Source: a virus
Lineage: Duplodnaviria; Heunggongvirae; Uroviricota; Caudoviricetes
Virus record (IMG/VR): IMGVR_UViG_2531839668_000013
Coordinates: 1 to 20,828 of that record
Strand: one strand, 5' to 3'
DNA length: 20,828 bases
Part shown: in pieces, positions 4,397-20,828 of the stretch
Position numbering within the stretch: position 1 is the first letter of the stretch
Layout: every line of letters starts with the position of its first letter
Notes under the pieces: model-generated
Told to the model about the DNA's origin: nothing
Databases searched by the model: none
The model's input: the letters and a program-made list of their open reading frames with translations, nothing else
Translations under genes and position numbers: made by a program

Positions 4397-4741
4397 TCGT
4401 GTTTCCGCTTCGCCGGAGCGCCTTTTCGCGCCATGTGATGAGTTCGGTCAGGCTCATGGGATACAGTTCTGATGGCGGCCAGTGAAATATCACTGCCACA
4501 TCCGCCATCAGGTCATCGACCGAGAGATTTTTTGGAAACGTCACTGCACCGAGTTCGGCGACAAAAAACCGACCACCTTACCGGCCAGCGCCACAAGGTC
4601 AGGCAGTTCCAGCGCGGCGACTTCCTGCTCGGTCAGCATCGGTGCCGTCATGCGCGGCAGCACCTTAATCAGTGCATCGACTTCGGAGTTTGCAACCGCA
4701 GCCAGACTGACACCGCGTAGCGTCCCGGCATTGGGTTTCAT
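4389..4741 (-). CDS. E+E': E+E' tail assembly chaperone, produced by programmed -1 ribosomal frameshift at 4562-4568
   Basis: Hand translation of the -1 frame after the slip site gives an open extension (...VAELGAVTFPKNLSVDDLMADVAVIFHWPPSELYPMSLTELITWREKAARRSGNTNE*) ending at TAA 4389-4391, overlapping the T start, as in P2. Confidence 0.7.
4541..4741 (-). CDS. E: Tail assembly chaperone E (zero-frame product; probably N-terminally truncated by an upstream deletion junction)
   Basis: 66-aa ORF ending ...GFLSPNSVQ; slippery heptamer at its 3' end; open frame extends 22 codons upstream without an ATG. Confidence 0.7.
   Translation of the reverse strand: MKPNAGTLRGVSLAAVANSEVDALIKVLPRMTAPMLTEQEVAALELPDLVALAGKVVGFLSPNSVQ
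4562..4568 (-). other. Slippery heptamer T-TTT-TTG for the E/E' -1 frameshift
   Basis: Minus strand reads GGTTTTTTGTCG across codons G-F-L of E (plus strand caaaaaa). Confidence 0.75.
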
Positions 4742-5313
4742 CAGCGTGACCTGTTCGATAACCTGCTCACCACGTTTGACCGGATTTTGCCGCCGCTGTC
4801 GCCGGGGTGTTTATGGGTATGCAGTACTTTACCGTTTGATGAAAGTTCACCGCCGGTGTGTTCAATGTTGCCGCGCATCGTCCCGCCCTTCTGCACTTCC
4901 AGCGTGCCGGTAATCAGCCTGTTGGTGCAGACCACCTCCGGTGTGTCCAGGGTGACGCGGGTTGATGCTTTCACCATGACCACCGGCACCGTGGCAGTAA
5001 CAGAATCAGAAGCCGTCACGCTGGCCGTTTTAATTCCGCTTACCGTGAGTGCACTGGTTTCAGGTTCATACTCAATCACCGCCCCGTCAGGGAAACGGAT
5101 ATGCAGGGCATCCGCCGACGCCGACGGCGCGGGGTTATCGGCACTTAAATCGCCGTTCGTCTGCGGGTCACTGCCCGGCATCGGGCAAAGACTCACTTTC
5201 GGGCAGGCGTTGTGGACAATCACTGGCGTCGGTGCAGGCGGGGCGCTGGTGCAACCGGCGCACAGCATCAGGCAGGTCAGCGCCATACCAGCGGCGGAAA
5301 TCTTCGTTTTCAT
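4741..5313 (-). CDS. lysC: In-frame fusion ORF: Rz1-like o-spanin lipoprotein LysC N-terminus joined to a C-terminal fragment of baseplate spike V
   Basis: From internal Met: MKTKISAAGMALTCLMLCAGC (signal peptide plus lipobox) and Pro-rich segment, then ...SADALHIRFPDGAVIEYEPETSALTVSG...VLHTHKHPGDSGG (gpV-like with HxH apex motif); starts inside lysB in another frame; stop overlaps E ATG. Confidence 0.65.
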   Translation of the reverse strand: MKTKISAAGMALTCLMLCAGCTSAPPAPTPVIVHNACPKVSLCPMPGSDPQTNGDLSADNPAPSASADALHIRFPDGAVIEYEPETSALTVSGIKTASVTASDSVTATVPVVMVKASTRVTLDTPEVVCTNRLITGTLEVQKGGTMRGNIEHTGGELSSNGKVLHTHKHPGDSGGKIRSNVVSRLSNRSR

Positions 5314-5593
5314 TGAGTAATCTCGTGATGGTTTTCTCGCGCTGAGCTTCACGCTTCGCGGCGTTTTCCAGTTCCTGACGCAGTGCCACCTGCGCCAGCT
5401 CGTTTTTGTCTGCCCTGGTGAGCGCAACATGAAGCTGATTTTTCAGCATGGTGATGGTCGCCTGTTGCTCGCTGGCTACGTTGTTTGCCCTGTCCAGTGA
5501 GGTGCGCAGGCTGGCGTTTTTATGCTTCGCCAGAAACAGACCCGCCACCGCCAGCGATAACAACACGACCAGCACAATCATCAGCCTTGACAT
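5168..5593 (-). CDS. lysB: LysB, Rz-like i-spanin, 141 aa
   Basis: N-terminal transmembrane segment plus coiled-coil periplasmic domain; contains the lysC start in an alternate frame; P2 position. Confidence 0.85.
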   Translation of the reverse strand: MSRLMIVLVVLLSLAVAGLFLAKHKNASLRTSLDRANNVASEQQATITMLKNQLHVALTRADKNELAQVALRQELENAAKREAQREKTITRLLNENEDFRRWYGADLPDAVRRLHQRPACTDASDCPQRLPESESLPDAGQ

Positions 5594-8361: not shown

Positions 8362-9435
8362 TTACGCTCCCGGCTCTGCGGTCGCCTTAGCCGGTGTGGA
8401 GAAATCACCGACCTTAATTTTTTCCACCAGACAACCGGCGGCGTAGTCCTCCACCACGTAATCAATGTTCATTGACTCGTAGTTCTCCACGCGGTCGAGT
8501 TTCGGGTTTTCCTCAATCACGCGGCGATGGCTGTCATCCATGTAGTAGATGGACAGGTTTTCCAGCTTCGTGATGAGCATCGCATCCGCCGGGAAGTACG
8601 GGACGCGTACCGCTGGCAGGTTGCCGATGCGTTTCTGGCTGATGATGACGTCAGCGGCCAGCATTTCGCTGTTGTCCTGCTCCTTGTTGACGATGGGAAA
8701 ATACTTGTCCGCCAGTAGCTGACGCCCCACAATCACCACAAGGTCAGGGTCTTCCTGATACCACGGTTCAATCAGGTTGTTGGTCGCATCCATCACCAGT
8801 GCATCAAGGCTGGCATAATCACCGCCCTTACCCACGCGGATGACCTCAGAGGTGGTGTGCCCTTCCTCGTCAGTGACCTTGCTCATCACGCGCGCCGGGG
8901 CTTCATTGCGGTATTTCTGCAGCCAGCCGACCGCCACATCCTGCAGCATCGGATTGCTGCTGCGGTCAGAGGTTTCGGCACGCTTCACGCCGTTAAAACC
9001 GGCCATGATGAAATCAAGGGACTGACGTTTGATAATGGCGTTACGGACACGGAGCTGGAAATCCTGATAACGCGCCCACAGGTCAAGCGTTTTGTAGCGG
9101 ATATAAAAATCGAAGTTAATCTGGTCGCATTCGTACTTGTTTGACGCCAGCTTCGAGAAGTCCTTCGGCTGACGCTCGGTGCCACCGGCAGTGTCGGTGG
9201 TGCTGGCGATGGAGCCGGTGACACCGATACCAATTTTTTCCCCTTTCATTTCGCTGACCGGCACAATGTTGATGCGGGTCAGAAAGTCAGAAGACTCCTG
9301 CATGGTGTTCATCAGGGTCTGGGTGACCGACGGTTCAACGGTGAATTTTTTCGACACATCACCGGCGTCGATGCCGTTCAGTTCGGCAACACGGGACAGG
9401 TAGGCATTAAATTTAAAGCGGGTTTCCTGGCGCAT
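8362..9435 (-). CDS. N: Major capsid protein N, 357 aa
   Basis: P2 gpN size and position between O and M. Confidence 0.9.
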   Translation of the reverse strand: MRQETRFKFNAYLSRVAELNGIDAGDVSKKFTVEPSVTQTLMNTMQESSDFLTRINIVPVSEMKGEKIGIGVTGSIASTTDTAGGTERQPKDFSKLASNKYECDQINFDFYIRYKTLDLWARYQDFQLRVRNAIIKRQSLDFIMAGFNGVKRAETSDRSSNPMLQDVAVGWLQKYRNEAPARVMSKVTDEEGHTTSEVIRVGKGGDYASLDALVMDATNNLIEPWYQEDPDLVVIVGRQLLADKYFPIVNKEQDNSEMLAADVIISQKRIGNLPAVRVPYFPADAMLITKLENLSIYYMDDSHRRVIEENPKLDRVENYESMNIDYVVEDYAAGCLVEKIKVGDFSTPAKATAEPGA

Positions 9436-9493
9436 AGTTTTTCCTGAAATTAAGGGTTAATCGTGAAGGTTTTCCCGGACTGACTGACGCCGG

Positions 9494-10348
9494 TCAGCAG
9501 TTCGTCATCAGGGCGTCACCGCCACCGCCGGTGGCTTTACTGCGGCGCTGCTGGGTCAGACTTTCGGTGTGGTCGAGACTGTTTTTCAGGCGGGTGAATG
9601 CCTGACTGGTTTCATCCGCCCTGTCAGTCACATCCTGCTTAAGTGCGGAAAAGGCGGTTTCCATCTCAGCAAGGCGCTGCTCAGTGGCGCTCAGTTTTTC
9701 CTGCACATGCTCAGCGACAGCGGTCACCGCTTCATGCACGTCATTCAGACGGGCGTCATCGCTGGCCTGTTTGCGGCCAAAAATGGATTTCACCTTTTCG
9801 GTCAGGGCGGTGAACACGGTTTCAGGCAGGTCTTCAAATTCCAGCTCAACAGGCGTTGCCACTGAAATCAGGTTTTCAGGGCTTAATTTGAAGCGGTTCA
9901 GAGGGTTGTGTTTTGCCGTGCGGCAGAATTCCAGGTATTCCGTGCCGAGGCTTGCCGGGTCATCGGTGACGGCCAGACCCACCAGATAACATTTGCCGGT
10001 ATTGGCAAAGTTCGGCTGAATTTCCATTGAGGTATAGACCTTCTGCGCGGCCTTGTTCATCGCGATAAGGTCATCGGTCGGGGTGATTTTCGCAAACAGC
10101 GCCCATTTGCCTTTCAGCGCCGAATCATCGTCAATCTTTTCGGCCTTCAGTTCGACCACATCGCCATAACGCTTAAAAATACCGTCAGGCAGGATGCCGC
10201 GCAGATGTTCCAGGTTAATGCGGCAACCATAGACACGCGGGTCAAAGGTTTCGGCCATTTCCTGAATATCCTGCGCACTGATGACACGCCCGTCACAGGT
10301 GTCACCCTCAACGCCGATACGAAAGAATTTTGAGACTTTTTTTGCCAT
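9494..10348 (-). CDS. O: Capsid scaffolding protein O, 284 aa
   Basis: MAKKVSKFFRIGVEGDTCDG... P2 gpO-like; start trimmed to ATG at 10346-10348. Confidence 0.85.
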   Translation of the reverse strand: MAKKVSKFFRIGVEGDTCDGRVISAQDIQEMAETFDPRVYGCRINLEHLRGILPDGIFKRYGDVVELKAEKIDDDSALKGKWALFAKITPTDDLIAMNKAAQKVYTSMEIQPNFANTGKCYLVGLAVTDDPASLGTEYLEFCRTAKHNPLNRFKLSPENLISVATPVELEFEDLPETVFTALTEKVKSIFGRKQASDDARLNDVHEAVTAVAEHVQEKLSATEQRLAEMETAFSALKQDVTDRADETSQAFTRLKNSLDHTESLTQQRRSKATGGGGDALMTNC

Positions 10349-10521
10349 TGTCAGGAGTCCTGAATAGTGATTAGAGGAGTCACATGTCGGCATCAGTTTC
10401 CCGACGATGCGCATCCTCCGCCATCAGTCCCGGATGGCTTATCACTGACACAACAGCACCTTAGCGAATCGCGGGGCGCGACTCAGTAGCCTTGCCGTGT
10501 ATTCATCACGGCGAGGTATTC

Positions 10522-12294
10522 ATGACCATCACCACAGACACCACTCTTTTACACGACCCGCGTCGTCAGGCGGCGCTGCTGTACTGGCAGGGATTTTCCG
10601 TGCCGCAGATTGCCGCCATGTTGCAGATGAAACGCCCGACGGTGCAGAGCTGGAAACAGCGCGACGGCTGGGACAGCGTTGCCCCCATCAGCCGTGTCGA
10701 AATGAGTCTGGAAGCGCGGCTGACCCAGCTCATTATCAAACCGCAGAAAACCGGCGGTGACTTCAAGGAAATTGACCTGCTCGGACGCCAGATTGAACGA
10801 CTGGCACGGGTCAACCGTTACAGCCAGACCGGCAACGAGGCAGACCTTAATCCGAACGTCGCTAACCGCAACAAAGGCGGGCGGCGCAAACCGAAAAAGA
10901 ATTTTTTCAGTGACGAGGCCATCGAAAAGCTGGAGCAGATTTTCTTTGAGCAGTCTTTCGACTATCAGTTGCACTGGTATCGTGCCGGGCTTGAGCACCG
11001 CATCCGCGATATCCTGAAATCCCGCCAGATTGGCGCAACGTTTTATTTTTCCCGCGAGGCGCTGCTGCGCGCCCTGAAAACCGGCCATAACCAGATTTTT
11101 CTGTCGGCCAGTAAAACGCAGGCGTATGTGTTCCGTGAATACATCATCGCCTTTGCCCGGCTGGTTGACGTTGACCTGACCGGTGACCCGATTGTCCTGG
11201 GCAATAACGGCGCAAAACTGATTTTTCTCGGCACCAACTCCAACACCGCACAGAGCCATAACGGCGACCTGTACGTCGACGAGATTTTCTGGATCCCGAA
11301 TTTTCAGGTACTGCGTAAGGTGGCATCAGGTATGGCCTCACAGAGTCACCTGCGCTCGACCTATTTCTCCACCCCGTCCACGCTGGCGCACGACGCCTAC
11401 CCGTTCTGGTCGGGTGAACTGTTTAACCGGGGACGCGCCAGCGCCGCCGAACGCGTGGAAATCGACGTCAGTCATAACGCTCTTGCCGGTGGTCTTCTCT
11501 GTGCGGACGGCCAGTGGCGGCAGATTGTCACCATTGAGGACGCCCTGAAAGGCGGCTGCACATTGTTCGACATTGAGCAGCTCAAACGCGAAAACAGCGC
11601 CGACGATTTTAAAAACCTGTTCATGTGTGAATTTGTTGACGACAAGGCATCGGTGTTCCCGTTCGAGGAGCTGCAACGCTGCATGGTCGACACGCTGGAA
11701 GAATGGGAAGACTATGCGCCGTTTGCCGCGAATCCGTTCGGCTCCCGCCCGGTATGGATTGGTTACGACCCGTCACACCGTGGCGACAGCGCCGGATGCG
11801 TGGTACTGGCACCTCCGGTGGTGGCCGGTGGCAAATTCAGAATACTTGAGCGTCACCAGTGGAAAGGCATGGACTTTGCCACTCAGGCTGAATCTATCCG
11901 CAAACTCACCGAGAAATACAACGTCGAATACATCGGTATTGATGCCACCGGCCTCGGTGTCGGCGTGTTCCAGCTCGTGCGCTCGTTCTATCCCGCCGCA
12001 CGCGACATCCGCTACACGCCGGAAATGAAAACCGCAATGGTGCTCAAGGCAAAAGACGTTATCCGCCGTGGCTGTCTGGAATATGACGTCAGCGCCACCG
12101 ACATCACCAGCTCGTTTATGGCTATCCGCAAGACCATGACCAGCAGCGGACGCAGCGCCACCTATGAGGCCAGCCGCAGCGAGGAAGCCAGCCACGCAGA
12201 CCTCGCCTGGGCGACCATGCACGCCCTGTTAAATGAGCCACTCACCGCCGGTATCAGCACCCCGCTGACATCCACCATTCTGGAGTTTTACTGA
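10522..12294 (+). CDS. P: Terminase ATPase (large) subunit P, 590 aa
   Basis: MTITTDTTLLHDPRRQAALLYWQGFSVPQIAAM... P2 gpP-like; divergent from O; RBS gagg upstream of the trimmed start. Confidence 0.9.
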   Translation: MTITTDTTLLHDPRRQAALLYWQGFSVPQIAAMLQMKRPTVQSWKQRDGWDSVAPISRVEMSLEARLTQLIIKPQKTGGDFKEIDLLGRQIERLARVNRYSQTGNEADLNPNVANRNKGGRRKPKKNFFSDEAIEKLEQIFFEQSFDYQLHWYRAGLEHRIRDILKSRQIGATFYFSREALLRALKTGHNQIFLSASKTQAYVFREYIIAFARLVDVDLTGDPIVLGNNGAKLIFLGTNSNTAQSHNGDLYVDEIFWIPNFQVLRKVASGMASQSHLRSTYFSTPSTLAHDAYPFWSGELFNRGRASAAERVEIDVSHNALAGGLLCADGQWRQIVTIEDALKGGCTLFDIEQLKRENSADDFKNLFMCEFVDDKASVFPFEELQRCMVDTLEEWEDYAPFAANPFGSRPVWIGYDPSHRGDSAGCVVLAPPVVAGGKFRILERHQWKGMDFATQAESIRKLTEKYNVEYIGIDATGLGVGVFQLVRSFYPAARDIRYTPEMKTAMVLKAKDVIRRGCLEYDVSATDITSSFMAIRKTMTSSGRSATYEASRSEEASHADLAWATMHALLNEPLTAGISTPLTSTILEFY

Positions 12295-13328
12295 TGAGCA
12301 AGAAAAAAGGGAAAACACCGCAACCTGCGGCAAAAAAAATGACTGCCAGCGCCCCGAAAATGGAGGCATTCACCTTTGGCGAGCCGGTGCCGGTACTCGA
12401 CCGCCGTGACATTCTGGATTACGTCGAGTGCATCAGTAACGGCAGATGGTATGAGCCACCGGTCAGCTTTACCGGCCTGGCAAAAAGTCTGCGTGCTGCC
12501 GTGCATCACAGCTCGCCGATTTACGTCAAACGCAATATTCTGGCCTCGACATTTATCCCGCATCCGTGGCTTTCCCAGCAGGATTTCAGCCGCTTTGTGC
12601 TGGATTTTCTGGTGTTCGGTAATGCGTTTCTGGAAAAGCGTTACAGCACCACCGGTAAGGTCATCAGACTGGAAACCTCACCGGCAAAATATACCCGCCG
12701 TGGCGTGCAAGAGGATGTTTACTGGTGGGTGCCGTCCTTCAACGAGCCGACAGCCTTCGCGCCCGGCTCCGTGTTTCACCTGCTGGAGCCGGATATTAAT
12801 CAGGAGCTGTACGGCCTGCCGGAATATCTCAGCGCCCTTAATTCTGCCTGGCTGAATGAATCAGCCACACTGTTCCGCCGCAAGTATTACGAAAACGGCG
12901 CTCATGCCGGATACATCATGTACGTCACTGATGCCGTGCAGGATCGCAACGATATCGAAATGCTCCGCGAAAACATGGTGAAGTCGAAAGGCCGCAACAA
13001 CTTTAAAAATCTGTTTCTCTATGCCCCACAGGGGAAAGCCGACGGCATCAAAATTATCCCGCTCAGTGAAGTGGCAACGAAGGACGATTTTTTTAATATC
13101 AAAAAAGCCAGCGCCGCTGACCTGCTGGACGCGCACCGCATCCCCTTTCAGTTGATGGGCGGCAAGCCGGAGAACGTCGGGTCGCTGGGTGATATTGAGA
13201 AAGTGGCAAAGGTCTTTGTCCGCAATGAGCTTATCCCGTTACAGGACAGGATCCGCGAAATAAACGGCTGGCTCGGTCAGGAGGTCATCCGATTTAAAAA
13301 CTACTCACTGGACACTGACAACGGCTGA
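12294..13328 (+). CDS. Q: Portal (capsid vertex) protein Q, 344 aa
   Basis: P2 gpQ size and position, immediately upstream of cos; start overlaps P stop. Confidence 0.9.
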   Translation: MSKKKGKTPQPAAKKMTASAPKMEAFTFGEPVPVLDRRDILDYVECISNGRWYEPPVSFTGLAKSLRAAVHHSSPIYVKRNILASTFIPHPWLSQQDFSRFVLDFLVFGNAFLEKRYSTTGKVIRLETSPAKYTRRGVQEDVYWWVPSFNEPTAFAPGSVFHLLEPDINQELYGLPEYLSALNSAWLNESATLFRRKYYENGAHAGYIMYVTDAVQDRNDIEMLRENMVKSKGRNNFKNLFLYAPQGKADGIKIIPLSEVATKDDFFNIKKASAADLLDAHRIPFQLMGGKPENVGSLGDIEKVAKVFVRNELIPLQDRIREINGWLGQEVIRFKNYSLDTDNG

Positions 13329-13333
13329 ACATC

Positions 13334-13355
13334 GCCGCCTGCGGGCGGCTTTTTT
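13334..13355 (+). terminator. Intrinsic terminator after Q
   Basis: GCCGCC-tgcg-GGCGGC hairpin followed by TTTTTT. Confidence 0.7.
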
Positions 13356-13497
13356 ACACCCCGTCATCACCCCCTCACACGCTCACCACCGCACAAAACA
13401 CCCCGCAGACACACCAACGCCTCAACGGGCAGACTAAGCGCCGTCACGACGCGCTGAGACGCTGAAAAAATAAAATCCGCACCACCGCCAGCGCGCA

Positions 13498-13516
13498 GTG
13501 CTTTCCCCGCCTCGCC
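13498..13516. other. cos: cos cohesive-end site (P2 19-nt cos)
   Basis: gtgctttccccgcctcgcc is the exact reverse complement of the P2 cohesive end GGCGAGGCGGGGAAAGCAC. Confidence 0.85.
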
Positions 13517-13661
13517 CGCCCGCTTCATGGGGCGGTTTTAATGCAGTTGCAATACCGCTTTTGAGCCACGCCAGTCCTGGCGGACGCACAGCCAGAACAT
13601 GTAACTCCGGCACATGCAAAACCATGCACAGATAAAAACGGGGATATCACAGAAAAAGCAC

Positions 13662-13688
13662 AAAAAAACCGGCATTCATGGTGCCGGT
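13662..13688 (-). terminator. Intrinsic terminator for minus-strand transcripts leaving the cargo island
   Basis: ACCGGCA-ttcatgg-TGCCGGT stem; the minus strand reads the hairpin followed by a T-run. Confidence 0.6.
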
Positions 13689-13827
13689 TCTGATCAATTT
13701 TTATAGTTGTCACTGGCCGCGCAATGTACCAATCACACTGTTGAGGCACGTACTGACAACAATTAGCAGAAAAATCGTTGTCCACGGACTTTCATAAATG
13801 TGAGATAACATCTTGATATAGATCATT

Positions 13828-14022
13828 TTATTTACTCATTCTGATGTGATTTAACAGGTATTTTATAACGACCATAAGCTCATCTTTACTGGCTTGTTCA
13901 ACCATTTTTTCAGTGTAACTGTCCACCTCGCGTGAGCTCAGGTCGTTATTTGAGGCCATTACAGTTAGCCTCTTTGCCCAGTCGGCATAAGGGTCTTTAA
14001 TTGATGAAAGGGAACTATGCAT
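13828..14022 (-). CDS. Hypothetical small protein (65 aa from internal Met; ORF extends to 14109)
   Basis: ORF in AT-rich cargo DNA with a downstream minus-strand terminator; no recognisable family; weak RBS. Confidence 0.4.
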   Translation of the reverse strand: MHSSLSSIKDPYADWAKRLTVMASNNDLSSREVDSYTEKMVEQASKDELMVVIKYLLNHIRMSK

Positions 14023-14452
14023 GTCCAAAAATCTCGAATTATTCAACCAACAGACGGCAGAAATCTTTGCGGTGCTATGGGATAACTTTCCTGTACCACA
14101 AGTCATCACCTACAAAAAATTTAACGCCGCGTTACCTGATGACTACTTTGACCAACTTAACTCACCAGAAATGAAAGCACTGAATCAGTTGCGTAGTGTG
14201 GTTGATGGCACATTCACTTTCTTAAGCGAAAACGGCTATATTCTGTACGGAACAGACCATCAGACCGGTTTTCATGATGTGCGACTGACCGAGAAAGCAC
14301 TCGCGGTGCTCAACAAAAAACCCGAAGCACTTGGCGGTAATGAAACGATGGGAGATAAGATTATCAGCGCAGTGAAGGACGGGACACCTGGTGTTATTGC
14401 CGGTGCAGTAACAAACCTGCTTACCCTCGGTGTCAATCTGATAACTAGCTAA
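14021..14452 (+). CDS. Hypothetical protein, 143 aa, with C-terminal Gly/Ala-rich hydrophobic segment
   Basis: Long ORF in AT-rich DNA; AGGGA-like RBS about 8 nt upstream; followed by terminator-like hairpin; no recognised family. Confidence 0.6.
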   Translation: MSKNLELFNQQTAEIFAVLWDNFPVPQVITYKKFNAALPDDYFDQLNSPEMKALNQLRSVVDGTFTFLSENGYILYGTDHQTGFHDVRLTEKALAVLNKKPEALGGNETMGDKIISAVKDGTPGVIAGAVTNLLTLGVNLITS

Positions 14453-14465
14453 CGCCTTACTTCAC

Positions 14466-14510
14466 CTCCGCCAGCACTGAAAGCAAGTTTCAGCACCGGC
14501 GGAGTTTCTT
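14466..14510 (+). terminator. Terminator-like compound hairpin after the 143-aa gene
   Basis: CTCCGCC...GGCGGAG outer stem with inner CTGAAA/TTTCAG stem, followed by TTTCTT. Confidence 0.5.
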
Positions 14511-14560
14511 AAATTTGTTCCATCTCAAACATTGAGATATCTTTTTCATTTCACCCGGAA

Positions 14561-14998
14561 TTACTTAATTACATTAAAGGTGAATCCCTTTACCCCTCGA
14601 CCAAAAACAGCCCCTCCATCCGATATATAAACAGAATTATCACAAAGACATATATCACCAAATGAATACTTTCCAAGCAAGTCTTTATAAATAGAAATAA
14701 GCTCTTGAGCCACATAAGGAATCATTAATTTTGATAACCCTTGTCCCCGCTCACTTTGCTTAACCCAAACATAATCTATTTGATATATTACAGCGTCCTC
14801 TGTAGATTCAATGATGAATGAACAAAAACCTATTTTCTCATTATCGTCATTCACCACTGCCACCACACTCACAAAATTACTGCAAAGTGCCTGATTATAC
14901 TTCTCCTCTGCTACGCTACAACAATCTTCAAAATCCCCGACTCCCAAAGAGATATCGGTGATAACATTCCCTTTCTTATCAATGCAAACTCTTACCAT
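14561..14998 (-). CDS. GNAT-family N-acetyltransferase-like protein, 145 aa
   Basis: Motif VWVKQSERGQGLSKLM resembles the GNAT acetyl-CoA binding motif (R-x-x-G-x-G) preceded by beta-strand-like segments; AGGT RBS; 45 bp downstream of A on the same strand. Confidence 0.55.
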   Translation of the reverse strand: MVRVCIDKKGNVITDISLGVGDFEDCCSVAEEKYNQALCSNFVSVVAVVNDDNEKIGFCSFIIESTEDAVIYQIDYVWVKQSERGQGLSKLMIPYVAQELISIYKDLLGKYSFGDICLCDNSVYISDGGAVFGRGVKGFTFNVIK

Positions 14999-15043
14999 AT
15001 ATAATTACCTGGCGTTATCTTGACACATTATTTATCAATAAGT

Positions 15044-17314
15044 TTAATCCACAAACCCCGGCCACTCATCAGTGACCGGATACGTGAATTTTTTCCCGCC
15101 ATAATTTACGGTTGCCCCACGCGCCAGCGCCTCAAGCTCCCATCGCTGCGGCCTGATACCGTTCTGAGCAAGGTCAACGCGGATACGGGTGATTTGCATT
15201 CGTTCCGACCGGGTCAGTCTGGCCGATGGCGCAATTTCATGTGGTTTTAACGGACTTCCGTTTCTTTGCTGACGGTTTGGCGTTCGCAGGTCGTGTTTTA
15301 ATGCGCCCCTGAGCGCCCTCACGACCTCCGGTTCATTCCATTCGATAACACCGTCATCAACCAGATTAAGCACTGCTGCGGCGTGCTCAGAAGGCGTGGG
15401 AGCCGGTAACGAAGTATCACCACCAGTGAGCTTTCCACAGTTATTGACAGGACTCCGAGGCGCGGCGATGCCGCTTTTTAAAGTCAAAGGCTCAACGACC
15501 GGCACTTTCGGAACAATGCGCCAGTCCATCGTTCTGGTGATATGAATATGACGCGCGCCGAGATGCGGCGCGTAAATGCCGACCACTCTCTCGACTTCTT
15601 CCTCGTACTCGTTAACTTCATCCGACGGACTACGGGCAACCCTGACAGTCTGACAATCGCGCGGAACATTTGCCCCACCCTGCGCGCTGATATACAACGC
15701 AAAATCACCACTGTCTGCGGCAGCGCGTGCAGCCTCGACGCGTTCGTCAAACTCATCAGCAATGCTGACGCCGCGAGGCAATTTGCGTAGTTCACGGTAA
15801 GCCCCCATTGTCGGCAGGCCAACCGTTTTAAATTGCGGAATGCGCCACGTTGACGCCCATGCGGTAACAGCCGCGGCAGTGTCTTTCAGCGGCCTGCCGG
15901 TATCGTTATCGAGCTGACCATCCAGTGCATAGCCATCGATGTTTTTTGAGATGTATTTCGCGATATATCCCGCAGCACCGCCCCGGTTAAGGTGTTTTGC
16001 CTGAAAACGGTTTCGCGCGGCTCCTCTTTCGTCACCATCCTCTTTGAGCGCATAGCGACGCATGATTTCGATAATCTGGTTACGCTGGCGTGGATTACAA
16101 AAAAGCATCATATGCCAGTGCGGCGTTCCGTCGTGGTGTGGCTCGACGACTCGCAAACCGTAGACCTGTAAATCATTATCCTTGAATGCCGTGCGCATCA
16201 GGCTCCAGATGCGGCAGAGATAACGCTGCGCATCCTTTGGATTAAATGCCTCATCATTCCAGCCGTGATTTAGCTGGACGGTTTTACTTTCGCCTTTTCC
16301 GACCTGACGTGTCGGGTGATACTTTGACGGCGCGGTCAGAGTGATAAACATCCCCACATCACCCTCTGCGGCGGCGTAACGCTCAATACCGGCGATGGTG
16401 TTCATCAGCTCCATCCGGCGAATTTCAGGATTAGAAATACTGCCCATCACCTTACTGATAAGGTCGATGCGCTCGCCGGTTTCCCTGTTTTCGAGGTCAC
16501 ACGATTTAAGAAATTCCAGATTTGCCTGGCGGCGTGCACGCACATCACGAATGGCATGTTTACTGGCATAAGGAGAACGGTCTTTATTGACCTCCCCGAC
16601 AGCAATCAGTAACGCCTCATGCCAGCGCATACGCTGGCCTTTAAGCTGATGAGTCCACCACTCATCGTTAAACAGACGGGCAATGGCAGAATATGCCTGC
16701 CTCGTGGTCATCTGTCCTTTACGGTATTTTTTCCAGTAGAGAGGGGAAATATTGAAAGCACGTGCAGCGCCAGCAACATGACCATACAGATGCGCCTGCG
16801 CCTCATCTGTAAACAGCGATTCTTTCTCGCCATGTGCATCAACCCATGCATCGCAGAGTTCCTCATACATCATGAAAAGCTGCGATGAGATACGGGCGGC
16901 AAACTTTTTCAGCTCCTTGTCATTCATCCCCGGCAGACGCGCATAATGGTCACGCTCTGCCAGAAACAGCAACGACGCGTCGGTGTTCATTTCATGGCGC
17001 TGATTCACGCGCTCAATACGCGGCCATAAACGGCGCTGAAAAGTGGATGTGAGGAAATAAAACCCGTGCACCGGGCTTTTATTGCGCCGGATGTAGTCAT
17101 AGCGTGAAGTAAACAGCGAGCGCAAAAAGTAAGGCAGGCGATTAATCGTGGATAAAACACCTTGCACCTGACGCATCTCGTCACGTGTAAGGGGTCTTTC
17201 GCGCCCGACGGCCTCGCGTGGCGCGTTCCATGCATAAGCACCGGTAAACGTCTCACCGGTGCCTGCGGCAAATGCTGACGGAGGGACAAAACGCCCGGAG
17301 GCTTTAACGGCCAT
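15044..17314 (-). CDS. A: Replication initiation protein A (rolling-circle nickase), about 756 aa
   Basis: P2 gpA-like throughout (PHWHMMLF, YIAKYISK active-site region); start trimmed to MAVKASGRF. Confidence 0.9.
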   Translation of the reverse strand: MAVKASGRFVPPSAFAAGTGETFTGAYAWNAPREAVGRERPLTRDEMRQVQGVLSTINRLPYFLRSLFTSRYDYIRRNKSPVHGFYFLTSTFQRRLWPRIERVNQRHEMNTDASLLFLAERDHYARLPGMNDKELKKFAARISSQLFMMYEELCDAWVDAHGEKESLFTDEAQAHLYGHVAGAARAFNISPLYWKKYRKGQMTTRQAYSAIARLFNDEWWTHQLKGQRMRWHEALLIAVGEVNKDRSPYASKHAIRDVRARRQANLEFLKSCDLENRETGERIDLISKVMGSISNPEIRRMELMNTIAGIERYAAAEGDVGMFITLTAPSKYHPTRQVGKGESKTVQLNHGWNDEAFNPKDAQRYLCRIWSLMRTAFKDNDLQVYGLRVVEPHHDGTPHWHMMLFCNPRQRNQIIEIMRRYALKEDGDERGAARNRFQAKHLNRGGAAGYIAKYISKNIDGYALDGQLDNDTGRPLKDTAAAVTAWASTWRIPQFKTVGLPTMGAYRELRKLPRGVSIADEFDERVEAARAAADSGDFALYISAQGGANVPRDCQTVRVARSPSDEVNEYEEEVERVVGIYAPHLGARHIHITRTMDWRIVPKVPVVEPLTLKSGIAAPRSPVNNCGKLTGGDTSLPAPTPSEHAAAVLNLVDDGVIEWNEPEVVRALRGALKHDLRTPNRQQRNGSPLKPHEIAPSARLTRSERMQITRIRVDLAQNGIRPQRWELEALARGATVNYGGKKFTYPVTDEWPGFVD

Positions 17315-17579
17315 ATGAGCCAAAAGCCTCTGAACAACGCTTGCTGAGTTGCTCAACCTGCGCGTTTAAATCAGCAAAAGACTTTGCGCTTCCGGTCAGA
17401 ATATCGTGATGCATCAGGCCGGAAACAAGCTGGCTTAATTTCGGGTAATAACCAACCACCGCCAGCCATTCCTGACCGGCGTTTTTACCGCTTTCAGCTC
17501 TCTTTTTCTCGTGGAGAATAAACTGAAAGCTGTCACTGGTAACGACATAACGTTCGCCAATTTCAATACGAATACTCAT
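17304..17579 (-). CDS. Small early-operon protein, P2 orf83-position, 91 aa
   Basis: Position immediately upstream of A; unknown function. Confidence 0.6.
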   Translation of the reverse strand: MSIRIEIGERYVVTSDSFQFILHEKKRAESGKNAGQEWLAVVGYYPKLSQLVSGLMHHDILTGSAKSFADLNAQVEQLSKRCSEAFGSYGR

Positions 17580-17800
17580 GCCGTTCTCCGGTAATGTTTG
17601 TTTTTTGCTTCAAAGACTGACTGGCAGGAAACACAACGCGTGGCTGACGGATAAGCCGCACGACGGGCAGCAGGTATTGGCGCGTCACACTCTTCGCAAA
17701 CCAGCGCAGAAACACCGCAATGCTTTACCCTTGCCGCGTTAATCTGGCGCTCCAGTAATTCAGCCTGTTGTTCCTGAATAAAATCTACGTTGTCCGGCAT
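17576..17800 (-). CDS. TraR/DksA-like C4 zinc-finger protein, 74 aa
   Basis: C-x2-C ... C-x2-C spacing (CEECDAPIPAARRAAYPSATRCVSC) typical of the TraR family; P2 orf82 position. Confidence 0.7.
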   Translation of the reverse strand: MPDNVDFIQEQQAELLERQINAARVKHCGVSALVCEECDAPIPAARRAAYPSATRCVSCQSVFEAKNKHYRRTA

Positions 17801-19059: not shown

Positions 19060-19332
19060 TCACAACCCCATCCACAAAAGCCATGCATCACGCTGTTCAA
19101 CTGGTCGGTTATAAAACGCCTCTCGTACAGCGCGATTAAACTCTGGAATGAAAACCCACTTCTCACCGACACGAGCGTTCGGCTTACTTGGATCACGAAG
19201 CTCAATAACTGGCAATTTATTCTCTTTTACCATCTTGACTACAGCCGTTTCTGGCTTACCAAGTAACTCTGCAAACTTAACCGTATGTACCGCATCAATC
19301 GGGTACTGAATCACATAGTCATTGACTTCCAT
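19060..19332 (-). CDS. cox: Cox (excisionase and repressor of the lysogenic promoter), 90 aa
   Basis: First gene of the early operon, divergent from C; ...KLPVIELRDPSKPNARVGEKWVFIPEFN... resembles P2 Cox. Confidence 0.8.
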   Translation of the reverse strand: MEVNDYVIQYPIDAVHTVKFAELLGKPETAVVKMVKENKLPVIELRDPSKPNARVGEKWVFIPEFNRAVREAFYNRPVEQRDAWLLWMGL

Positions 19333-19371
19333 TGATTAGCCCTTTTTGCTTTCGTGTTACCCTTATTAGAT

Positions 19372-19413
19372 CCAGTCCCTTCTAGGTCGCCCCTGTCCTT
19401 TCTAGGGACTGGC
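19372..19413. promoter_or_regulatory. Repeat cluster GTCC(C/T)TTCTAGG x2 within an inverted repeat CCAGTCCCT...AGGGACTGG: putative Cox or second operator at the lysogenic promoter
   Basis: Direct repeats at 19375-19386 and 19395-19406; inverted 9-bp arms at 19372-19380 and 19405-19413. Confidence 0.4.
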
Positions 19414-19426
19414 TAACACACTCAAA

Positions 19427-19473
19427 AGGTCACCAATACACAACCTTTTGACGGGAATATAAGTCACCAATAG
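19427..19473. promoter_or_regulatory. Direct repeats AGGTCACCAATAC / AAGTCACCAATAG flanking the candidate Pe -10: putative C repressor operator half-sites
   Basis: Two 10/10 identical GTCACCAATA copies at 19429-19438 and 19463-19472, 34 bp centre to centre. Confidence 0.45.
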
Positions 19474-19484
19474 GTTACTGTCAA
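19456..19484 (-). promoter_or_regulatory. Candidate early promoter Pe (minus strand: TTGACA - 17 bp - TATATT)
   Basis: Near-consensus sigma70 -35/-10 on the minus strand pointing toward cox; -35 abuts the C start codon; flanked by direct repeats. Confidence 0.5.
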
Positions 19485-19778
19485 ATGCAGACATTCGAAA
19501 AACTGAAAGCGATTAGGAAAGCAGAAGGCTTAACACAGGCGAAATTCAGCGAAATTAGCGGGATAGCTCTAGGAACAGTCAAAAATTACGAAAGTGGGCA
19601 TAAAGACCCTGGTCTCAGCATCGTTATGCGAGTCACAAATACGCCTTTATTTAAAAAATATACGCTCTGGTTAATGACTGGTGATACGTCACCACAAGCT
19701 GGTCAGATCGCGCCGGCTCTCGCACACATTGGGCAAAAACCAACAGAATCAGACCACTCCGAAAAACAGACTGGTTAA
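19485..19778 (+). CDS. C: Immunity repressor C, 97 aa
   Basis: HTH-containing small protein; ...KYTLWLMTGDTSPQAGQIAPALAHIGQ... resembles the P2 C C-terminus; divergent from cox, upstream of int. Confidence 0.8.
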   Translation: MQTFEKLKAIRKAEGLTQAKFSEISGIALGTVKNYESGHKDPGLSIVMRVTNTPLFKKYTLWLMTGDTSPQAGQIAPALAHIGQKPTESDHSEKQTG

Positions 19779-19847: not shown

Positions 19848-20828
19848 ATGTCAATTAAGAAGCTCGATGATGGACGCTATGAAGTGGACATTAGACCTCG
19901 CGGTCGCGACGGAAAACGCATCCGCAGGAAATTTGAAAGAAAAGCTGAGGCTGTAGCATTTGAGCGATACACAATCGCCTACGCCAGCCAGAAAGAATGG
20001 GCAGGTCAGCGAGCAGATCGCAGAACTTTGAGTGAGTTGCTGGACATCTGGTGGAAATATCACGGGCAAAACCACGAGCATGGAACAAAAGAGTTTAATC
20101 ATCTGCTCAAAACCATCAGCGGCATAGGTGATATACCAGTGAGCCGGATGAGCAAAAGAGCTTTGATGGATTATCGTTCCATGCGACTACGTGATGGTAT
20201 CAGTGCCGCAACGATAAACCGTGACATGTACCGATTATCCGGCATGTTCACAAAATTAATTCAATTGGATGAATTTTCCGGGCAACACCCAATTCACGGA
20301 CTGCCGCCACTGGCGGAGGCCAACCCTGAAATGACGTTCCTGGAAAAAGCAGAAATCGAAAAACTGTTAAATGTTTTGGATGGTGATGACTTACTTGTCG
20401 CACTTTTATGTCTGAGCACTGGAGGAAGATGGACGGAAGTTGCCACGCTAAAACCAGCACAGATTACAAATTGCAGGGTTACCTTCCTGAAAACCAAAAA
20501 CGGTAAAAAGCGAACCGTGCCGATTTCTGAGGAACTGGAGAAAAAAGTTAAAGAGGAGGCCAGCGCTAAATTATTCAAAGTTGATTATGAGAAGTTTTGC
20601 GGGATTTTACGCAGAGTGAAGCCAGATATACCACCCAATCAGGCAACCCACATCCTGCGGCATACATTCGCAAGCCATTTCATGATGAATGGGGGCAATA
20701 TAATCGCACTGCAACAGATTCTGGGACATGCGAGCATTCAGCAGACGATGGCCTATGCGCACCTTGCGCCTGACTACCTGCAAAATGCCGTCGCACTGAA
20801 TCCTCTAAAAGGCGGAGTGACGTTATAA
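19848..20828 (+). CDS. int: Tyrosine integrase, about 326 aa
   Basis: MSIKKLDDGRYEVDIRPRGRDGKRIRRKFE... P2 Int-like with tyrosine recombinase C-terminal motifs (HILRHTF...LGHASIQQTMAYAH); start trimmed to RBS-preceded ATG; stop TAA at the window end. Confidence 0.85.
   Translation: MSIKKLDDGRYEVDIRPRGRDGKRIRRKFERKAEAVAFERYTIAYASQKEWAGQRADRRTLSELLDIWWKYHGQNHEHGTKEFNHLLKTISGIGDIPVSRMSKRALMDYRSMRLRDGISAATINRDMYRLSGMFTKLIQLDEFSGQHPIHGLPPLAEANPEMTFLEKAEIEKLLNVLDGDDLLVALLCLSTGGRWTEVATLKPAQITNCRVTFLKTKNGKKRTVPISEELEKKVKEEASAKLFKVDYEKFCGILRRVKPDIPPNQATHILRHTFASHFMMNGGNIIALQQILGHASIQQTMAYAHLAPDYLQNAVALNPLKGGVTL

Follow-up and report, generated by a model that had tools for sequence, protein, structure and literature searches.

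Introduction

In phage P2 (NC_001895), int and C lie on one side of the transcriptional switch and cox, B and A on the other, and the promoters Pe and Pc are placed face to face. Pe has its -35 element at the C start codon and a C half-site on each side of its -10 element, and Cox represses Pc. The half-sites of P2 are 8 bp long with a spacing of 22 bp, its transcripts from Pe and Pc share about 35 nt, and P2 Cox has at least six 9-bp cox-boxes, TTAAA(G/C)NC(A/C), which overlap the Pc hexamers. In P2 Hy dis, a P2-type C likewise acts on two direct-repeat half-sites of 8 bp at Pe, but these are 26 bp apart and flank the -35 element. The pR/pL switch of phage 186 likewise has promoters that face each other and two repressors, each with operators of its own, Apl being the counterpart of Cox; it differs in using a large CI that acts on inverted repeats, together with CII and a second, CII-activated promoter.

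Phage WΦ (Peduovirus Wphi) represents immunity class III, an immunity class being made up of C proteins that recognise the same site and are at least 95% identical (PMC3448106). WΦ C is 43% identical to P2 C, the two phages being heteroimmune, and 44% identical to the C protein of P2 Hy dis. Its half-sites are 10 bp long, 34 bp apart from centre to centre, and lie on either side of the Pe -10 (PMC1904268). Both half-sites are required in vivo, while in vitro WΦ C binds a single half-site (PMC1904263), which P2 C does not. Repression by WΦ C is not abolished when the spacing is cut to 2.5 or 2 helical turns, and the protein bends DNA by about 60 degrees (PMC1904263). Direct repeats seem to be the rule in all seven known classes, and each half-site has been proposed to take up one C dimer, of whose helices one is specific and the other less so (PMC2995052).

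Here we analyse a 20,828-nt stretch of viral DNA (IMG/VR record IMGVR_UViG_2531839668_000013, positions 1 to 20,828), called the window below, in which a first-pass annotation, made from the letters alone, had placed an immunity switch at 19333-19484.

Results

The switch region is that of phage WΦ

According to the open reading frame listing, the 152 bp of 19333-19484 are exactly the spacer between cox and C, which are divergently oriented. Three genes flank or adjoin it:

19060-19332, minus strand: cox, 90 aa (Pfam Phage_Cox, E = 9e-24), first gene of the early operon
19485-19778, plus strand: C gene, 97 aa (Pfam HTH_3), product 100% identical to WΦ C
19848-20828, plus strand: int, 326-aa tyrosine integrase (Pfam Int_N and Phage_integrase), 3' of C in the Pc operon

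Window positions 19300-19520 (221 bp) match the WΦ switch record AJ245959 at 100% identity. The same level of identity holds for the C protein, in comparison with both AJ245959 and AY135739, and for the Cox protein. From its family and its identity to WΦ Cox, the cox product is predicted to be the lytic repressor of Pc and the excision directionality factor. A 1-kb query around the spacer matched WΦ (AY135739, AJ245959) and about 20 further Peduovirus records from Escherichia, Yersinia and Salmonella at 99.7-100% identity. Only the surroundings set the element apart from WΦ: Int differs at two amino acids, tail genes have been lost, and a cargo block occupies 13517-15056.

The region also has the features of a P2-type switch in general. 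It combines a C protein of about 100 aa with an HTH domain, a Cox-family protein and a tyrosine integrase, the same families as in P2, in the order cox, spacer, C-int. The arrangement of Pe and Pc is face to face with overlapping transcripts, as judged from our scan for Pe, from AJ245959 for Pc and from PMC1904263 for the overlap. The spacer is longer than that of P2 (152 versus 114 bp). A switch of the 186 type (CI/Apl/CII) was considered and rejected: the repressor here has 97 aa and a single HTH domain, versus about 190 aa and two domains for CI. No cII-like ORF is listed between cox and B.

At 100% identity to WΦ C, the C protein lies above the 95% that delimits an immunity class; the half-sites are two 10-bp direct repeats, 34 bp apart from centre to centre, that flank the Pe -10; and an imperfect 12-nt direct repeat is present between Pe and Pc. 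By all criteria that could be tested, the element belongs to the WΦ class. We conclude, with a probability of about 0.95, that the region serves a P2-like prophage of the WΦ class as its transcriptional (immunity) switch. The feature is already known, since it is the published WΦ switch base for base.

A WΦ-class switch, at 98.3-100% identity, is found in at least 25 phage records, and C is at least 99% identical to the window C in 35 of 80 related IMG/VR loci (described below). The repeats in the spacer thus mark an immunity class and not a single element. The first-pass annotation had held that they are specific to this element and define its immunity specificity: the second half of that proposal stands, for the WΦ class, while uniqueness to the element is contradicted by the phage records.

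Promoters Pe and Pc

The promoter elements in the spacer are:

19479-19484, minus strand: Pe -35 element, TTGACA (consensus scan), adjoining the C start codon
19456-19461, minus strand: Pe -10 element, TATATT (consensus scan)
19450-19486, minus strand: Pe promoter feature of AJ245959, GenBank annotation mapped onto the window
19332-19368, plus strand: Pc promoter feature of AJ245959, mapped onto the identical sequence

Read on the minus strand, Pe consists of TTGACA (19484-19479), a 17-nt spacer and TATATT (19461-19456), with 11 of 12 consensus matches, and its -35 ends one base ahead of the ATG at 19485. This is the promoter that had been pointed out in the first-pass annotation, and it proved to be the sole site with at least 11 of 12 matches in the whole 20.8-kb window, both strands being scanned; such sites are expected at a mean of 0.08 per dinucleotide-shuffled window. 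The TGTCAA followed by ATG that represents the Pe -35 and the C start is kept in 43 of 43 related switches. The -10 (plus strand: GAATATA) is conserved save for a few one-base variants (AAATATA, CAATATA, GAATTTA).

Pc gave no match in the consensus scan, as expected for a weak promoter. By eye, its hexamers are a -35 of TTGATT (19332-19337) and, after a 17-nt spacer, a poor -10 of TGTTAC (19355-19360; 3 of 6 matches). The Pc -35 shares one base with the cox start codon, mirroring the position of Pe at the C start codon. The annotated features of AJ245959, Pc on the plus and Pe on the minus strand, bear out the face-to-face arrangement that had been deduced from the position of Pe. In WΦ the two transcripts share 82 nt of overlap (about 35 nt in P2), and O2, the C half-site nearer to Pc, is 60 nt from the Pc start (PMC1904263). 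Both distances fit start sites at about 19368 for Pc and about 19449 for Pe, the latter coordinate being deduced from the overlap and the AJ245959 promoter feature. These positions should be good to 1-2 nt only, because the AJ245959 Pe feature sits 2 nt off the consensus hexamers.

The much stronger convergent Pe is said to lower Pc further. For the present locus it is the 82-nt overlap that suggests such an effect.

C operators and Cox repeats

Two families of direct repeats lie between the promoters:

19463-19472, plus strand: O1, C half-site GTCACCAATA, exact repeat, within the Pe spacer (PMC1904263, PMC1904268)
19429-19438, plus strand: O2, C half-site GTCACCAATA, exact repeat, about +12 to +21 of Pe (PMC1904263, PMC1904268)
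19372-19386, plus strand: Cox repeat 1, CCAGTCCCTTCTAGG, with the 12-nt core GTCCCTTCTAGG at 19375-19386, +8 to +19 of Pc
19392-19406, plus strand: Cox repeat 2, CCTGTCCTTTCTAGG, with the 12-nt core GTCCTTTCTAGG at 19395-19406

O1 and O2 are both exactly GTCACCAATA, 10 bp long and 34 bp apart on either side of the Pe -10, and the window holds no further exact copy. That these repeats are the C operators, as had been suspected, follows from the geometry reported in PMC1904268 and from the identity of a published oligonucleotide. The pEE938 oligonucleotide, which was used in CAT reporter assays and whose insert was also amplified for EMSA (PMC1904263), is identical to the window minus strand between 19484 and about 19430, a stretch that covers the -35 and O2. 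This synthetic 57-bp Pe operator, with GTCACCAATA sites only, is fully repressed by C, and mutation of O1 abolishes the repression of Pe by C (PMC1904263).

Among near-identical natural variants of the switch, substitutions occur at four positions only: 19391, between the Cox repeats; 19455, adjoining the Pe -10; and 19438 and 19472, the tenth base of each half-site. In Yersinia phage vB_YpM_22 the tenth base of O2 (19438) is changed from A to T, and in Salmonella phage STYP1 that of O1 (19472) from A to G (variants in L008, L009). Since the natural variants alter the tenth base, the sequences suggest that the invariant core of the half-site is the 9-mer GTCACCAAT.

A one-mismatch copy of the half-site, GTCACAAATA, lies in the same orientation inside C, at 19632-19641, 169 bp from O1. 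We rejected it as a third operator: such copies are not above chance (8 of 100 shuffles), and unpaired near-matches to the half-site are discounted in PMC1904268.

The second family, GTCCYTTCTAGG, consists of the imperfect copies GTCCCTTCTAGG and GTCCTTTCTAGG, 20 bp apart, which extend to the 15-mers CCAGTCCCTTCTAGG and CCTGTCCTTTCTAGG. In PMC5009727, which cites Ahlgren-Berg 2009, WΦ Cox is described as repressing Pc without the use of P2 cox-boxes and as recognising a 12-nt direct repeat in the Pe-Pc region. GTCCYTTCTAGG is the sole 12-nt repeat in that region, which by elimination makes it the WΦ Cox target, with two copies 3' of the Pc start, unlike the cox-boxes of P2, which overlap the Pc hexamers. 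The repeat family within a 9-bp inverted repeat that had been proposed as candidate Cox boxes or for Pc control is present and agrees with what that source describes. Of all the assignments made here this one is the least directly documented; it is supported by the secondary citation, the elimination and the comparative result given below.

Could the repeats and the promoter match be chance features of an AT-rich spacer? The spacer has 44% G+C versus 53% for the window, and short repeats are common in such DNA. However, an exact direct repeat of at least 10 nt within 152 nt arose in only 40 of 5000 dinucleotide shuffles of the spacer (0.8%), a 15-mer direct repeat with at most two mismatches in 11 of 2000 shuffles (0.55%), and a promoter site with at least 11 of 12 matches in 6 of 5000 shuffles of the intergenic region (0.12%). 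The sequence is moreover conserved in 25 phage records, and direct experiments on it have been published (PMC1904263, PMC1904268). We consider a chance origin extremely improbable.

Each repeat type follows its own protein in related switches

From IMG/VR we retrieved 80 loci with C relatives (69-100% identical) by alignment of four C proteins; they contain 43 distinct switch leaders. The repeats of the WΦ Cox type (CCAGTCCYTT...CCTGTCCTT; GTCCYTT) are confined to loci whose Cox is at least 93% identical to that of the window. All loci with a Cox of at most 87% identity carry another repeat type, which is AACCGTT-like and has a period of about 10-11 bp. The O1 sequence is distributed differently: GTCACCAATAGGTTAC, the 16-mer to which O1 extends, or a 2-nt variant of it is found in the WΦ-class loci and also in L047, L049, L050, L071 and L076, whose C proteins are 71-87% identical and whose Cox repeats are not of the WΦ type. 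Two natural recombinants show the converse. L057 (Cox 97%, C 74%) has a different O1 and WΦ-type Cox repeats, and L079 (Cox 93%, C 70%) likewise has WΦ-type Cox repeats. Across the 43 switches, then, the type of Cox repeat tracks the Cox protein and the O1 sequence tracks C. The recombinant loci separate the two proteins and support the assignment of GTCACCAATA to C and of GTCCYTTCTAGG to Cox without recourse to the literature.

These data bear on the possibility that the roles are swapped or shared, with GTCCYTTCTAGG serving as a site for C or for autoregulation of Pc and GTCACCAATA being bound by Cox. Viewed in one sequence by itself, either family could go with either protein; PMC1904263 leaves the autoregulation of Pc by C open for WΦ, and flanking phage DNA alters the EMSA pattern in that study. 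A swap is nonetheless very unlikely, given the full repression by C of an operator containing only GTCACCAATA and the effect of the O1 mutation, both reported in PMC1904263, the 12-nt repeat on which Cox is reported to act in PMC5009727, and the association of each repeat type with its assigned protein in L057 and L079.

Two further observations concern the Cox side of these loci. Where Cox is 68-87% identical (L087, L083 and many others), the loop of the inverted repeat that encloses the Cox repeats in the window holds two to three AACCGTTTAGA-like copies with a period of about 10-11 bp, which may be the Cox site of those classes. In phage fiAA91-ss (L004 1-1200), which has an identical switch and C, an IS21 element (istA) has taken the place of most of cox upstream of the equivalent of window position 19237, a natural cox knockout in the same immunity class.

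Orientation of the C half-sites

The extension of O1 to GTCACCAATAGGTTAC (19463-19478) is a pseudo-palindrome with symmetry at 6 of 8 positions. When the half-sites of the relatives are viewed as such 16-mers (GT-N12-AC), the O2 of L047, L049, L076 and L062 is symmetric at 7 of 8. In the WΦ class, O1 and O2 match best in direct orientation (12 versus 9 positions), as they do in the SI7 class, whereas in the classes of L051, L059, P37/L066, L084 and L085 they match best when one is inverted (13 of 16 versus 6-9). At the level of single loci, O2 is inverted relative to O1 in P37 (L002 2013-2028 and 2046-2061), L051, L059, L084, L085, L075 and L079, with 13 of 16 matches or with 8 of 8 for GTCGTCAA. 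The annotated C start of Yersinia phage P37 (L002 2024) falls inside O2 and is probably too far upstream.

Inverted half-sites in sister classes would go against the published generalisation that P2-like C proteins use direct repeats, and this point, drawn from sequence comparison, may be new. It may be a small new point about other loci and not about the window. A tentative proposal, possible but on balance doubtful, is that in the C subfamily that includes WΦ each half-site is a complete 16-bp pseudo-symmetric dimer site, GTNNNNNN/NNNNNNAC (GTCACCAA/TAGGTTAC for WΦ O1, 6 of 8), and that the relative orientation of the two sites is free. In the same proposal O2 lies within a covarying AAAAGGT-N12-ACCTTTT, which together with a CCAG...CTGG stem could form two hairpins in the C mRNA leader and thus add an RNA layer to the switch.

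Inverted repeats in the C leader

The stems in question belong to two perfect inverted repeats:

19372-19412: inverted repeat 1, CCAGTCCCT (19372-19380) and AGGGACTGG (19404-19412), perfect 9-bp pair, encloses the Cox repeats
19422-19451: inverted repeat 2, TCAAAAGGT (19422-19430) and ACCTTTTGA (19443-19451), perfect 9-bp pair, brackets O2 and reaches the Pe start

Inverted repeat 2 does not figure in the first-pass annotation and brackets the left copy of GTCACCAATA; inverted repeat 1 is a potential hairpin in either transcript.

Both might function as RNA hairpins, either in the C mRNA leader of 117 nt or in that of cox, with a role in RNA stability, translation or transcriptional interference; such a role would supplement the switch model and not replace it. 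In its favour, the Pc leader (19368-19484, 117 nt) is predicted to fold into exactly these two hairpins (-33.4 kcal/mol, z = -2.9), and hairpin 1 alone reaches -20.5 kcal/mol (z = -3.1). In the alignment of the 43 distinct relatives, the stem of hairpin 2 (AAAAGGT-N12-ACCTTTT and its outer pairs) has 85% of its cells paired, and two positions show compensatory exchanges (UA/CG/GC at one, CG/GC/UA/AU at the other). Its covariation score is 0.173, against 0.102 ± 0.012 for shuffled controls, none of 500 of which reach 0.173, and a maximum of 0.103 in slid registers; the shared phylogeny of the 43 sequences inflates these controls. In the outer stem of hairpin 1, CCAGNN/NNCTGG, G-C is exchanged for A-T, and C-G for T-A and A-T, among the relatives.

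Against this, RNAalifold finds no consensus structure in the same 43-sequence leader alignment, and the 5' hairpin on the Pe side is weak by itself (z = -0.5). G·U and A·C pairs are about equally frequent in hairpin 2 (20 and 16), and thus neither RNA strand is favoured and symmetry at the DNA level fits equally well. Moreover, the arms of hairpin 1 share bases with the Cox repeats and an operator lies within hairpin 2, and symmetric sites that co-evolve with a protein would also seem to covary. In a search of the whole window, Rfam gave nothing at the gathering threshold and, around the switch, only a meaningless match to NEAT1 (E = 0.49). We regard functional RNA hairpins as rather unlikely; the conservation of both inverted repeats with compensatory changes may itself be new.

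Prophage surroundings

The window starts exactly at the ogr stop (position 1) and ends at the int stop (position 20828), which correspond to WΦ 22438 and 22712. Bounded in this way, it spans the whole prophage minus attL, attR and the Cox and Int sites of attP. Compared with WΦ, the prophage is without WΦ positions 8381-9698 (the last part of lysC, R, S and the beginning of V) and 10058-17643 (W, J, I, H, G, orf44, FI, FII), a loss of tail genes of about 9 kb in total with junctions near window positions 4780-4786 and 5136-5139 (region 4741-5430). In a 229-aa ORF a LysC domain is fused to the spike domain of gpV (Pfam LysC and Phage_spike). Among complete E. coli genomes none has the LysC-V junction at a single place, and the 31-nt E'/V junction occurs in no species-representative genome. 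Judged from its gene content, the element should be unable to make tails, and with the tail genes lost the switch here would govern immunity and excision and not the production of infectious virions.

The block 13517-15056, located between cos/Q and gene A, the position of old/tin in P2, has no match in WΦ. It contains a 145-aa GNAT-like ORF (14561-14998; Acetyltransf_1 at 22 bits, barely above the cut-off) and ORFs of 143 aa (14021-14452) and 93 aa (13828-14109) that have no Pfam match; none of the three has a PADLOC match.

Discussion

For this exact sequence, the literature covers the promoter starts, the C sites and the need of both for repression, the bending of DNA by C and the repression of Pc by Cox through the 12-nt repeat. 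The EMSA, reporter fusions and comparison with P2 that the first-pass annotation suggested as checks have largely been done in that published work. Repression of Pe by C, repression of Pc by Cox and immunity of the lysogen to WΦ are predicted for the present element by carrying these results over from the identical DNA and proteins. Nothing in the evidence contradicts the explanation as a WΦ switch.

On this explanation, two promoters would face each other across the 152-bp cox-C spacer: a strong early Pe, starting at about 19449 on the minus strand and serving cox, B and A, and a weak Pc, starting at about 19368 on the plus strand and serving C and int. With an overlap of about 82 nt between the transcripts, activity of Pe would also interfere with Pc. 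In the lysogen, dimers of the 97-aa HTH protein C would occupy O1, in the Pe spacer, and O2, just 3' of the Pe start, bend the DNA and shut Pe. A drop in C, or its inactivation by the P4 antirepressor, would allow Pe to fire and Cox to be made; WΦ is reportedly derepressible by that antirepressor. Cox would then act on both 12-nt repeats just 3' of the Pc start and turn off the synthesis of C and Int, while doubling as the excision directionality factor. From its position at +8 to +39 of Pc we infer that Cox may block the initiation step or the first phase of elongation, probably through oligomers that spread from the repeats across the start region, a suggestion made by analogy with the filaments of P2 Cox (PMC3936717).

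The finding makes no open question newly testable by itself, and its value for the window is one of annotation, as a P2-like prophage of the WΦ immunity class. Operator orientation and the covarying inverted repeats bear modestly on the long-standing puzzle of how symmetric C dimers read direct repeats. To judge from its switch, the element should confer immunity to WΦ-class phages and should, as WΦ is said to be, be derepressible by the P4 antirepressor.
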